Assembly: GCA_001303445.1 (NCBI GenBank)
Contig: LJTQ01000002.1
Coordinates: forward strand, 10,596-74,595
Length of the DNA stretch: 64,000 nucleotides
Reading direction: 5' to 3'
Source of the DNA: Betaproteobacteria bacterium SG8_39
GTDB lineage: Bacteria > Pseudomonadota > Gammaproteobacteria > Burkholderiales > SG8-39
The translations under genes were made by a program, and so were the position numbers. Below are positions 29,020-35,645 of this stretch, one piece after another (within the stretch, counting starts at the first letter, position 1; every line of letters begins with the position of its first letter). Under the pieces are notes generated by a model, which was not told the origin of the DNA, made no database searches, and saw nothing but the letters and a program-made list of their open reading frames with translations.

Positions 29020-29057
29020 AATCCGCCTTCATTTGATCACTTGAACGACAGGCAACC

Positions 29058-29750
29058 ATGGCATACGCGATTCCGTTGTGGAGCCCGCCGGCGCTGCCGG
29101 TGAGCGACAGCAAGGACCTGTTTCCGGTCCGGCGCATCTTCTGCGTCGGGCGCAATTACGTCGAGCACCAGAAGGAAATGGGGGGTGACGGTCGCGAGGC
29201 GCCGTTCTTCTTCATCAAGTCGGCGCATGCGATCGTGCCGCCCGGCGGCAAGGTGGCCTATCCGCCGAAGACGTCGAACCTGCACTACGAGACGGAAATG
29301 GTCGTTGCGATTGCGAAAGGCGGGCGGCGCATTCCGGCAAGCGAGGCGAATGCGCACATCTTCGGCTATGGCGTGGGCTTGGACATGACGCGCCGCGACC
29401 TGCAGCAATGGGGCAAGGATCACGGCCGGCCGTGGGATTTTGGCAAGGATTTCGACCAGGCCGCGCCCTGCAGCGCGCTCGCACCGGCGGCGCGCATCGG
29501 GCACCCGGCAAAGGGCGCGATTCGCCTGGCGGTGAACGACAAGCTGCGCCAGGATGCCGATCTCTCGGACATGATCTGGTCGGTGCCCGAGCAGATCGCC
29601 TACCTGTCCGAGTACTACCACCTCGAGCCGGGCGATCTGATCTTCAGCGGTACGCCGGCCGGCGTGGGGGCGGTGAAAGCCGGCGACCGGCTGCTCGCCT
29701 CGGTCGACGGCGTCGGCTCGCTCGAGGTCACGATCGCGCCGGCCGAGTAG
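29058..29750 (+). CDS. fumarylacetoacetate hydrolase family protein (fumarylpyruvate-hydrolase-like size)
   Basis: 230 aa. CVGRNYVEHQKEMG, LHYETEMVVAI and GDLIFSGTPAGVG are FAH-fold motifs. Confidence 0.85.
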   Translation: MAYAIPLWSPPALPVSDSKDLFPVRRIFCVGRNYVEHQKEMGGDGREAPFFFIKSAHAIVPPGGKVAYPPKTSNLHYETEMVVAIAKGGRRIPASEANAHIFGYGVGLDMTRRDLQQWGKDHGRPWDFGKDFDQAAPCSALAPAARIGHPAKGAIRLAVNDKLRQDADLSDMIWSVPEQIAYLSEYYHLEPGDLIFSGTPAGVGAVKAGDRLLASVDGVGSLEVTIAPAE

Positions 29751-29786
29751 CCACGCATCGCGAAGCGGTCGCGCGCGCCGTCCACG

Positions 29787-30425
29787 ATGGAGCTCTATAC
29801 CTACTTTCGCAGCTCTGCGGCGTTCCGCGTGCGCATTGCGCTCAACCTCAAGGGGCTTGCCTATAGCGCGCATACGATTCACCTGCGCAAGAGTGAGCAG
29901 CGCGCGCCTGACTATCTCGCGGTCAATCCGCAGGGTCTGGTGCCTACCCTGGTCGTCGATGGGCAGCGACTCACGCAGTCGCTGGCGATTCTCGAATATC
30001 TCGAGGAGCGTCATCCTGCGCCGGCGCTGCTGCCGGCCGACGCCATCGGCCGCGCCCGCGTGCGCGCGCTCGCCGACCTGGTGGCTTGCGAGATCCACCC
30101 GCTGAACAATCTGCGCACGCTGGACTACCTGCGCACGCATCTCGGCCAGGACGAAGCCGGAATCGCCAGCTGGTACCGGCACTGGATCGCCGACGGGCTC
30201 GAGAAGCTCGAGGCCGCGCTGACGCAGGACGGCAAGGCGGGAACCTACTGCCATGGCGAGCAGCCGACGGTCGCCGACTGCTGCCTGGTACCGCAGATCT
30301 TCAACGCACAGCGCTTCGACAGCGACCTGTCGCCGTATCCAAAGACGATGCGCGTGTTCGACGCCTGCATGAAGCTGGACGCCTTTCAGCGCGCCCAGCC
30401 CTCGGCACAGCCCGACGCCGAATAA
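29787..30425 (+). CDS. maiA: maleylacetoacetate/maleylpyruvate isomerase (zeta-class GST)
   Basis: 212 aa. MELYTYFRSSAAFRVRIALNLKG...NPQGLVPTL is the GST-zeta signature. Confidence 0.85.
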   Translation: MELYTYFRSSAAFRVRIALNLKGLAYSAHTIHLRKSEQRAPDYLAVNPQGLVPTLVVDGQRLTQSLAILEYLEERHPAPALLPADAIGRARVRALADLVACEIHPLNNLRTLDYLRTHLGQDEAGIASWYRHWIADGLEKLEAALTQDGKAGTYCHGEQPTVADCCLVPQIFNAQRFDSDLSPYPKTMRVFDACMKLDAFQRAQPSAQPDAE

Positions 30426-30476
30426 GCCAGCCGGACAGGGGACGCCAACTTTCGCAGCCAGAAGGAGATCAGGGAC

Positions 30477-31226
30477 ATGAAACTGGACGGAAAAAAGGCC
30501 ATCGTGACCGGAGGCGCCTCCGGCATCGGTAAAGCGACGACGCTCGAACTCGCGCGGGCGGGCGCGCAGGTTTTCCTCGGGGACGTCGACGAGGCCGGCG
30601 GCACCGCAGTGCAGAAGGAGGCGCACGCGGCGGGTCTCAAGGTGGACTACGTCAAGCTCGACTTGACCAACGAGACCTCAATCGACCAGTTCGCGGCGGA
30701 CGTCCTCAAGCGCGCCGGCGGCCGCGTCGACGTGCTGGTCAACGCGGCAGGCTGGGGAAAGGTGCAGCCGTTCGTCGACAATCCGCCCGAGTTCTGGGAT
30801 CAGGTGCTGGCGATCAACCTGAAGGGGCCGATCCGGCTGACGCAAAAGCTGCTGCCGTCGATGTTCGAGGCACGCGCCGGGAAGATCGTCAACATCTCGA
30901 GCGACGCCGGGCGCGTTGGCAGCCTCGGCGAGACCGTCTACGCGGCGGCCAAGGGCGGCGTGATCGCGTTCACCAAGTCGCTCGCGCGCGAGGCCGCGCG
31001 CTTCGGCGTCAACGTGAACTGCGTGTGCCCGGGCCCCACCGACACGCCCCTCTACAACCGCGTGCCCGAGAAGATCCGCGAGGCCTTCGTCCGCGCGATT
31101 CCCTTCCGTCGCGTGGCGCAGCCCAAGGAGATCGCCGACGCGATCCTGTTTTTCGCGAGCAACCGCTCCGACTACGTGACCGGACAGATCCTCAGCGTAA
31201 GCGGCGGTCTGACGCTCGCCGGCTAG
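30477..31226 (+). CDS. SDR family oxidoreductase
   Basis: TGGASGIGKAT cofactor motif and YAAAKGG catalytic motif. GAAGGAG SD 10 nt upstream. Confidence 0.9.
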   Translation: MKLDGKKAIVTGGASGIGKATTLELARAGAQVFLGDVDEAGGTAVQKEAHAAGLKVDYVKLDLTNETSIDQFAADVLKRAGGRVDVLVNAAGWGKVQPFVDNPPEFWDQVLAINLKGPIRLTQKLLPSMFEARAGKIVNISSDAGRVGSLGETVYAAAKGGVIAFTKSLAREAARFGVNVNCVCPGPTDTPLYNRVPEKIREAFVRAIPFRRVAQPKEIADAILFFASNRSDYVTGQILSVSGGLTLAG

Positions 31227-31275: not shown

Positions 31276-31671
31276 TCAGCACTGCTCCCAGGGCAGGCCG
31301 TCATGGCGCCAGCCCGCCAGCGAGTTGCGCTGGTGCTGGTCGTTCAGTTCGCCCTCAAAGCCGTGCACCACGTTGTACACGCGCGTAAAGCCGGCGCGCT
31401 CCAGTTCCCCGCCGGCCTCGTTGGAGCGATTGCCGCTGCGGCAGATCAGCACGATCGGCCGCATCGTATGGTTGGTTCCCGCGAGCCGCTTGACCTGGCC
31501 CACGAAGTGCGGGTTGACGAGCCAGTCGGGGCCGTCGTTCCAGGCGACATGCAGCGCGCCCGCCGGATGGCCGACGAACAGGTACTCCATCTCGCTACGG
31601 CAATCGATGAACAGGGCGTCAGGATTGCGCTTGAGAAAATCGAAAGCGGCTTTCGGCTCGAGGTGCTCCAT
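31276..31671 (-). CDS. rhodanese-like domain-containing protein
   Basis: 131 aa. Active-site loop LICRSGNRS within a rhodanese-fold context (FIDCRSEMEY...). Confidence 0.85.
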   Translation of the reverse strand: MEHLEPKAAFDFLKRNPDALFIDCRSEMEYLFVGHPAGALHVAWNDGPDWLVNPHFVGQVKRLAGTNHTMRPIVLICRSGNRSNEAGGELERAGFTRVYNVVHGFEGELNDQHQRNSLAGWRHDGLPWEQC

Positions 31672-31868
31672 ACGCGGGAAGTCCTTGAAAGACCACGCAT
31701 TATAGGGTGTTTCGGGTTGACAGCCAGGGATTGTCTCGGCACACTGCGGCGGGTGTGCGAGGCACGCACACGCTGTGTGGCGCCGATTTGATGGTTCAGC
31801 TTGCGGGCGCCGAACCGCCGTCCCTCGGACGGCGGGGAAAAAAATGCCGCTAAAGAGACGTGCACGAG

Positions 31869-31909
31869 AGCCCGTTTCTAGCGCGAGCTGAACGGGCTTT
31901 TGTTTTTTT
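31869..31909 (+). terminator. intrinsic terminator/attenuator in the metH leader
   Basis: Stem AGCCCGTT (31869-31876) / AACGGGCT (31891-31898) with an inner AGC/GCT extension, followed by TTTTGTTTTTTT. It ends 8 nt before the metH ATG. The upstream gene is divergent, so this is not a gene-end terminator. Confidence 0.7.
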
Positions 31910-31916
31910 ATCTGCC

Positions 31917-35645
<3,729 letters not shown>

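Follow-up and report, generated by a model that had tools for sequence, protein, structure and literature searches.

A conserved leader RNA upstream of metH in uncultured Burkholderiales-type bacteria is very probably a SAM-II riboswitch

The SAM-II class of S-adenosylmethionine (SAM) riboswitches was described as the metA motif by Corbino et al. (2005), with occurrences beyond the alpha-proteobacteria that included Bordetella. In that study, near-consensus promoters were found a few nucleotides (nt) before the hairpin P1, and terminators were frequent between the helix P2 and the open reading frame (ORF); SAM-II elements of alpha- and beta-Proteobacteria are mostly linked to terminators. The crystal structure 2QWY revealed that SAM intercalates between U21 and G22 and pairs with the unpaired U44, that the L1 uridines U10-U12 form a triplex and that contacts are made with U44-A46. 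An RNA element of beta-proteobacterial metXZ genes, which uses a terminator-antiterminator mechanism, was presented as 'novel' by Leyn et al. (2014; PMC4239095), and its core is given in their Fig. S2 as GCGCCGAUUUG...GCUUGCGGGCGC...UAUAAAUnCnGCUAAAGA. The metXZ elements were later reassigned to canonical SAM-II (McCown et al., 2017; PMC5473149). In the beta-proteobacterial genomes analysed by Leyn et al. (2014; PMC4239095), metH is controlled by S-adenosylhomocysteine (SAH) riboswitches or by MetR. The present analysis concerns the leader of metH, the gene for the cobalamin-dependent methionine synthase, in Betaproteobacteria bacterium SG8_39 (GCA_001303445.1). The window, i.e., the whole stretch of DNA that was analysed, comprises 64,000 nt of contig LJTQ01000002.1 (positions 10,596-74,595, forward strand). 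Judged from its sequence, the metH leader is very probably a SAM-II class riboswitch, which would act as a transcriptional OFF switch for metH. As a cis-regulator the leader is genuine and conserved, but its class is well known and its beta-proteobacterial form has already been published.

The predicted aptamer lies in the 245-nt gap that separates a divergent rhodanese gene from metH, and consists of the following parts:

31779-31860, + strand: SAM-II aptamer (Rfam RF00521, SAM_alpha), assigned by a partial RF00521 match, the ortholog alignment and the covariance model R1
31779-31784 with 31806-31811, + strand: P1, GGCGCC/GGCGCC (RF00521 alignment and fold)
31785-31790, + strand: L1, GAUUUG (alignment)
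31794-31804, + strand: 5' strand of P2, GUUCAGCUUGC, which contains CAGCUUGC at 31797-31804 (alignment)
31812-31848, + strand: L3, with the A-rich segment GGAAAAAAAUG at 31836-31846, interrupted by a hairpin at 31815-31835
31815-31835, + strand: 9-bp hairpin CCGCCGTCC-CTC-GGACGGCGG, inserted in L3, optional and variable (sequence and fold)
31849-31860, + strand: 3' strand of P2, GCUAAAGAGAC(G), with GCUAAAG at 31849-31855 (alignment)

A permissive scan with RF00521 aligned positions 31779-31811 (GGCGCC-GAUUUGAUGGUUCAGCUUGCG-GGCGCC) with a posterior of 1.0 in a local match of 15.3 bits. For comparison, 80 loci encoding close relatives of MetH were retrieved, from which 27 leaders were compiled: that of the window and those of 26 Burkholderiales-type genomes, which are mostly uncultured metagenome-assembled genomes (MAGs) with a MetH identity of 66-89%. 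The same element is located directly upstream of metH in all 26 of these beta-proteobacterial loci. Seven orthologous leaders without an insertion in L3 exceed the RF00521 gathering threshold of 36 bits (37.9-41.9 bits, full-length model coverage), and three further orthologs score 29-36 bits. The RF00521 consensus CCGUGGuGAUUUGacCGGCCGGCUUGCAgCCACGUUAAAcAAgUCGCUAAAgAGGCC in these matches identifies AAAAAAAUGCCGCUAAAGAGAC of the window as the L3/P2 3' half of the aptamer. The model R1, which was built from the 10 insertion-free orthologs only and without the window element, matches the window at 31778-31865 with 49.1 bits (E 1.3e-13); it finds no other copy in the 64 kb, matches all 26 Burkholderiales-type loci and detected the element in none of the gamma-proteobacterial metH loci of the set. 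The second-best R1 match in the window (29199-29226, - strand, GCGCCGACUUGAUGA..GGCGC, 10.4 bits, E 0.14) falls within a long - strand ORF (29037-30626) and is taken as chance. The elements share one order, in which GCGCC-GAUUUGAnGUUCAGCUUGC-GGGCGC is followed by a linker that varies and ends in AAAcAAAU, then by the invariant nCnGCUAAAGAGACG and a terminator (GCCCGUUUC...GCAAGCUGAACGGGC-UUUU). Public records label five of the orthologous loci (L008, L010, L015, L018 and L020) as 'uncultured Enterobacteriaceae', 'Bordetella parapertussis' or 'uncultured Bordetella'; their MetH and leader sequences are clearly of the Burkholderiales type, and the labels are probably taxonomic misassignments of these MAGs.

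The conserved positions are those expected of a SAM-binding pocket. P1 is paired in all 27 leaders and invariant in sequence, and five of the six columns of L1 (GAUUUG) do not vary either, the first U being exchanged in L003 only (GACUUG). The 5' strand of P2b, GCUUGC within CAGCUUGC, is kept in 26 of the 27 leaders, with L001 having GAUUGC like Burkholderia metX, and the GCUAAAG of the 3' strand CGCUAAAG is invariant, including its unpaired U. The P2 pairings CUU:AAG and GC:GC are paired to 99.3% and show no variation; they are supported by conservation and complementarity rather than by covariation. The complete OFF structure (P1, P2 pseudoknot and terminator) is paired to 94.4% over the 27 leaders, compared to at most 55% in slid controls. 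When the contact bases of 2QWY are mapped onto GAUUUG, CUUGC and GCUAAAG, every SAM-contacting nucleotide turns out to be conserved, apart from the one near-invariant L1 uridine that varies in a single ortholog, and SAM is therefore the predicted ligand.

It could also be argued that the leader responds to another ligand, namely SAH, cobalamin or methionine, or that it represents a new aptamer class with a superficial likeness to SAM-II. SAH riboswitches control metH in Comamonadaceae, and the window element stays under the RF00521 cut-off. However, the models for SAH, cobalamin, SAM-SAH, SAM-V and the SAM-II long loops (RF01726, described from Bacteroidetes and marine sequences) gave no match at E <= 10 with a 181-nt query, and RF01057 (SAH) and RF01726 gave none with an 801-nt query either. 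Moreover, the nucleotides that contact SAM in the SAM-II structure are conserved and close orthologs exceed the SAM-II cut-off, which makes another ligand or class most improbable. An earlier note on this DNA, made from the sequence alone, had failed to find the hallmarks of SAH riboswitches and was right in this respect. It had proposed a comparison with several Rfam families, and of these SAM-II provided the answer, while SAH, SAM-V, SAM-SAH and cobalamin remained without a match. Its suggestion of a different or novel regulator has to be given up, since orthologs pass RF00521 and the beta-proteobacterial form is in the literature; the note itself had held that a confident hit to a known family would make the element a known one.

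The low RF00521 score of the window appears to be explained by the 21-nt hairpin insertion in L3, since insertion-free orthologs pass RF00521 and R1 recognizes the window element with its high score. A hairpin of 4-12 bp and of unrelated sequence is found at the same site of L3 in 17 of the 27 leaders (window, L001-L004, L006, L008, L010-L012, L014-L017 and L019-L021), and the remaining 10 leaders have a canonical L3 of 12 nt. The insertion-bearing orthologs that were scanned, L001, L002 and L004, likewise fail to reach E 0.1 with RF00521. In the metX leaders of Burkholderia, Ralstonia and Cupriavidus, insertions are present at the same L3 site (Leyn et al., 2014, Fig. S2; PMC4239095). The L3 hairpin thus seems to be a dispensable insertion, and the same seems to hold for a 5' leader hairpin, P0 (31753-31771), which is likewise optional. 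RF00521 therefore has a sensitivity gap: L3 insertions, present in 17/27 leaders and accompanied by sub-threshold scores in the window and the three scanned orthologs, leave riboswitches unannotated. Such insertion-bearing SAM-II copies can be mistaken for novel leaders, upstream ORFs (uORFs) or small RNAs (sRNAs).

Downstream of the aptamer, the leader contains an intrinsic terminator, which overlaps with a short ORF:

31864-31909, + strand: intrinsic terminator, expression platform (fold and conservation; U tract to 31909)
31864-31877/31890-31903, + strand: terminator stem, with an inner stem at 31880-31882/31887-31889 (14+3 bp; fold)
31869-31876/31891-31898, + strand: terminator core AGCCCGTT/AACGGGCT, followed by TTTGTTTTTTT to 31909
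31844-31891, + strand: 15-codon ORF, judged spurious (ATG 31844, TGA 31889-31891; not conserved)

The strong hairpin is followed by UUUUGUUUUUUU, which ends at 31909, 8 nt ahead of the metH ATG. The terminator is retained in 27/27 leaders with 96.8% of its positions paired, and its two outer pairs covary (CG/AU/GU and GC/AU). A rule-based scan that admits no loop longer than 8 nt therefore passed over the + strand terminator, which was recovered by folding and conservation. The whole leader folds into four hairpins with a minimum free energy (MFE) of -72.2 kcal/mol, compared to a mean of -59.0 kcal/mol for 200 dinucleotide shuffles (z = -3.42), and one of the 200 shuffles folds as well as the leader. 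Three orthologs, L020 (1400-1440), L022 and L035, possess an extra stable hairpin (e.g., CGGGAGACUCGUCUCCCG) between the aptamer tail GCUAAAGAGACG and the terminator, which is a second optional stem, located in the expression platform.

The earlier note had described a structured metH leader, and it had located the TTGACA hexamer, the CACAC/GTGTG hairpin, the 9-bp hairpin, the ATG with its uORF and the terminator core; all of these features are found where it had placed them, and the structure of the leader is confirmed by the fold statistics and by the conservation of the terminator in the 27 leaders. As to conservation among the orthologs, the aptamer and the terminator are kept, the uORF is not, and P0 and the 9-bp hairpin are optional; as to the covariation that the note had proposed to look for, it is seen in the outer pairs of the terminator, while the invariant P1 and P2 are uninformative.

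The mechanism favoured by the earlier note was control by a leader peptide, in which ribosomes on the 15-codon uORF (31844-31891) would shield the 5' arm and the loop of the terminator, thereby leading to antitermination and/or to reinitiation at a metH start that lacks a Shine-Dalgarno (SD) sequence. The uORF does exist and overlaps with the terminator 5' arm and loop, its AUG is preceded by a G-rich stretch, and the note's reading that metH has no recognisable SD sequence (UUUUUUUAUCUGCCAUG, 31899-31919) is correct; GGAG precedes metH in some orthologs and is missing in many. The comparison of the leaders, however, contradicts this mechanism. The AUG lies inside the conserved L3/P2 core AAAUnCCGCUAAAG, and a start codon (ATG or GTG) is present at the equivalent site in only 11/27 leaders; the other 16 have ATA, ATT, ATC, GTA or GTT and are natural variants that the model does not accommodate. 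The recurring residues of the peptide (xPLKRR) are those that the invariant riboswitch core CCGCUAAAGAGACG encodes, and the peptide has no internal Met codon with which the methionine supply could be sensed. Since the spacer between core and terminator differs in length, frame, length and stop of the uORF vary as well, from an end 45 nt upstream of metH up to read-through into metH. The supposed GGGG SD sequence of the uORF belongs to the optional L3 hairpin, whose 3' arm it forms, and the 10 insertion-free leaders lack it. The uORF appears to be a by-product of the conserved core, and leader-peptide control is very improbable.

For the SAM-II riboswitch, regulation of the terminator would depend on two antiterminator strands, both of which are part of the P2 helix of the aptamer:

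31794-31805, + strand: antiterminator strand 1, GUUCAGCUUGCG in the aptamer loop; its complement is the terminator 3' arm CGCGAGCUGAAC at 31882-31893
31854-31860, + strand: antiterminator strand 2, AGAGACG in the 3' strand of P2; its complement is CGUUUCU in the terminator 5' arm at 31873-31879

The duplex of strand 1 with the 3' arm comprises 12 bp (-22.6 kcal/mol) and is paired to 90.1% over the 27 leaders, and the pairing of strand 2 to 95.3%; for the whole antiterminator, the value is 91.9%, compared to at most 44.5% in slid controls. The antiterminator is the unconstrained MFE structure in 12/27 orthologs. When the P2 strands were blocked, which mimics bound SAM, the terminator formed in 25/25 leaders evaluated (the 27 minus the window and L013). 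Folding of successively longer prefixes of the window leader shows the hairpin between tail and 5' arm from 31885 on, and the antiterminator is the MFE structure of nascent transcripts that end at 31893-31897 (-51.3 to -52.9 kcal/mol); it is only in the full-length leader that the terminator becomes the more stable of the two (-56.6 vs -53.5 kcal/mol). In these folding models, terminator and antiterminator are near-isoenergetic, as expected of a kinetic switch.

The following mechanism is proposed. Transcription would begin from the promoter TTGACA-N17-CACACT. At high SAM levels, the aptamer would adopt an H-type pseudoknot, in which CAGCUUGC of the P1 loop is paired with GCUAAAGAG further downstream, the L1 uridines (GAUUUG) sit in the pseudoknot groove and SAM is stacked between U and G of CUUGC, facing the unpaired U of GCUAAAG. 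The SAM-bound pseudoknot would sequester both P2 strands, thereby allowing the hairpin at 31864-31903 and the U tract to form, and transcription would terminate 8-15 nt ahead of the metH start codon, which would switch metH off. At low SAM levels, the free P2 strands would each invade one arm of the terminator, the loop 31794-31805 pairing with the 3' arm 31882-31893 and the tail 31854-31860 with the 5' arm 31873-31879; with this two-helix antiterminator in place, the polymerase would read through into metH. The chances are about even that both proposals of wider scope apply, i.e., a symmetric exchange of four strands ([loop:tail + terminator] vs [loop:3' arm + tail:5' arm]), which is experimentally uncharacterised for SAM-II, and a takeover of metH by SAM-II in this uncultured Burkholderiales lineage. 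If so, SAM would act on metH as a feedback repressor, replacing the feed-forward activation exerted by SAH, with SAH riboswitches or MetR serving elsewhere in the beta-proteobacteria. That SAM should repress the final step of methionine synthesis makes physiological sense.

Several points weigh against the assignment to SAM-II or against the proposed switch. At gathering thresholds, Rfam has no match anywhere in the 64-kb window, and the 15.3 bits of the window element are below the RF00521 gathering cut-off of 36 bits. P1 and P2b never vary in the set and have no covariation support of their own, and the putative P2a (GUU:GAC) is weak and poorly defined; it consists of 3 bp with one G-U pair, is paired to 91.4% without any compensatory change and is broken in two to three orthologs. 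A published association of SAM-II with metH was not found in the literature. The antiterminator shows little covariation (3 cells in 2 pairs), and the two most distant orthologs, L043 and L077, have a different terminator 3' arm. Furthermore, the terminator dominates the equilibrium fold of the full-length window leader (P about 0.98), so that the argument for the antiterminator rests on the co-transcriptional order of folding, which was modelled by prefix folding only.

The genes and the other elements of the locus are as follows:

31276-31671, - strand: rhodanese gene, divergent (rhodanese domain by Pfam)
31717-31722, + strand: -35 hexamer TTGACA of the putative metH/riboswitch promoter (sequence reading)
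31740-31745, + strand: -10 hexamer CACACT, 17 nt past the -35 hexamer (sequence reading and ortholog comparison)
31753-31771, + strand: optional 5' leader hairpin P0, GUGUGCG-AGGCA-CGCACAC (fold)
31917-35645, + strand: metH, cobalamin-dependent methionine synthase, 1242 aa, the regulated gene (ATG at 31917)

MetH contains all five Pfam domains (S-methyl_trans, Pterin_bind, B12-binding_2, B12-binding and Met_synt_B12), and its alignment with the orthologs begins at residue 1. The presence of a promoter and a regulatory intrinsic terminator in the gap, of which the earlier note had marked the TTGACA hexamer and the terminator, is supported by the orthologs, which retain the terminator throughout and in which a TTGAC[AG]-N17/18-nAnMnT promoter is found in 20/27 leaders; variants of the -10 hexamer at equal spacing are CAGACT, CACACT, CAGAAT and GACAAT. 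A rule-based promoter scan did not pick up the metH promoter, the -10 hexamer CACACT being too weak for its rule. The leader transcript is predicted to begin near 31752. In 13/27 leaders, the end of the -10 hexamer lies 6-9 nt 5' of P1, as reported for SAM-II, and six leaders (window, L001-L003, L010 and L015) have 26-35 nt between the two; P0 fits only in these six and differs in sequence among them. On the other side of the gap, ATTATA at 31699-31704 (+ strand) matches the -10 consensus TATAAT perfectly when read on the - strand. It is situated some 28 nt upstream of the rhodanese start codon, and ATT[AG]TA occurs at a similar position in 19/27 orthologous intergenic regions; the rhodanese gene probably has its promoter here, back to back with that of metH. 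The U tract and the hairpin of the terminator fall inside the ribosome footprint of metH, and it may be speculated that the terminator hairpin also dampens translation of the read-through metH mRNA.

Two further explanations assign the locus to an sRNA. The first is an independent - strand sRNA gene related to RF02424 (Bp2_Cand287_SIPHT), a candidate from Burkholderia. Weak - strand matches to RF02424 do cover the same bases, in the window at 31753-31902 with 13.8 bits and in orthologs with up to 32.3 bits; they are all far under the family cut-off of 70 bits, and the promoter, the U tract and the met gene downstream are all in keeping with the + strand. When the RF02424 consensus is reverse-complemented, it reads as the SAM-II core (GCGUCGAUUUGAU..UUCAGCUUGCGGACGC...AAACAGCUAA) followed by a terminator, so that the resemblance argues for a + strand SAM-II element, and an independent - strand sRNA is extremely improbable. 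RF02424 itself seems to be a SAM-II riboswitch whose strand was assigned wrongly. Among the orthologs, - strand RF02424 matches are located at L022:1326-1483, L077:1322-1448 and L035:1305-1466. The second explanation retains the riboswitch and adds a role in trans, in which the SAM-terminated leader of about 150 nt would act as an sRNA, as proposed for RZ and RA of Sinorhizobium meliloti. In S. meliloti, SAM-II-terminated transcripts accumulate as sRNAs, and the optional 5' hairpin together with the terminator hairpin would stabilise a leader product of about 150 nt. Even in S. meliloti, however, a function in trans was not demonstrated, the sequence data give no hint of a target in trans and the optional elements of the leader are not conserved; an additional role of this kind is improbable. 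Other weak Rfam matches of 10-20 bits (rnk_pseudo, Thr_leader, the RAGATH-1 hammerhead, McaS and others) were rejected, as they are driven by the generic terminator hairpin.

The overall scientific weight of the SAM-II assignment is small. What is new but minor is the association with metH, the false negatives of RF00521 caused by L3 insertions and the explicit model of a two-helix antiterminator. metH would be added to the genes behind SAM-II, and the last step of methionine synthesis seems to be SAM-repressed in one uncultured Burkholderiales-type lineage. The double complementarity between P2 strands and terminator arms offers a concrete, testable model for SAM-II-driven termination, which is experimentally unestablished in the literature consulted.

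Among known systems, the SAH riboswitch (RF01057) in front of Comamonadaceae metH shares with the present leader the gene, the bacterial class and the principle of a leader RNA that senses a metabolite of the methyl cycle. There is, however, no match in sequence or structure, and SAH riboswitches are switched ON by SAH, whereas SAM-II riboswitches are switched OFF by SAM. RF02424 (Bp2_287, Burkholderia, SIPHT) covers the same bases on the opposite strand, and its reverse-complemented consensus holds the SAM-II core and the terminator; it differs in its annotation, which is that of an sRNA of the opposite strand, and its scores here are 14-32 bits compared to a cut-off of 70. Canonical SAM-II (RF00521; 2QWY) has the same P1 hairpin, L1 GAUUUG, P2 5' strand GCUUGC, A-rich L3 and 3' strand CGCUAAAGAG. 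A promoter closely upstream, a terminator downstream and a methionine-pathway gene next to it are also shared, and orthologs of the window element reach the gathering score. The canonical short L3, rich in A (UUAAAcAAg), which links P1 to the 3' strand of P2, is present as well, but it is split by the 21-nt hairpin insertion in the window, where P2a is short and rich in G-U. In addition, the downstream gene is metH rather than metA, metX, metY, metZ, metC or hom, and the host is an uncultured Burkholderiales-type beta-proteobacterium instead of an alpha-proteobacterium. The metXZ element (Leyn et al., 2014; PMC4239095) has a near-identical core, GCGCCGAUUUG..(C)AGCUUGCGGGCGC..UAYAAAUnCnGCUAAAGA, which is followed by a terminator, and in Burkholderia, Ralstonia and Cupriavidus its L3 is likewise interrupted by a hairpin at this site. 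It is found upstream of metXW or metZ, whereas the window element and its 26 orthologs are located upstream of metH, and its terminators are reported not to be conserved in sequence, whereas the terminator arms of the metH group are conserved and complementary to both P2 strands.

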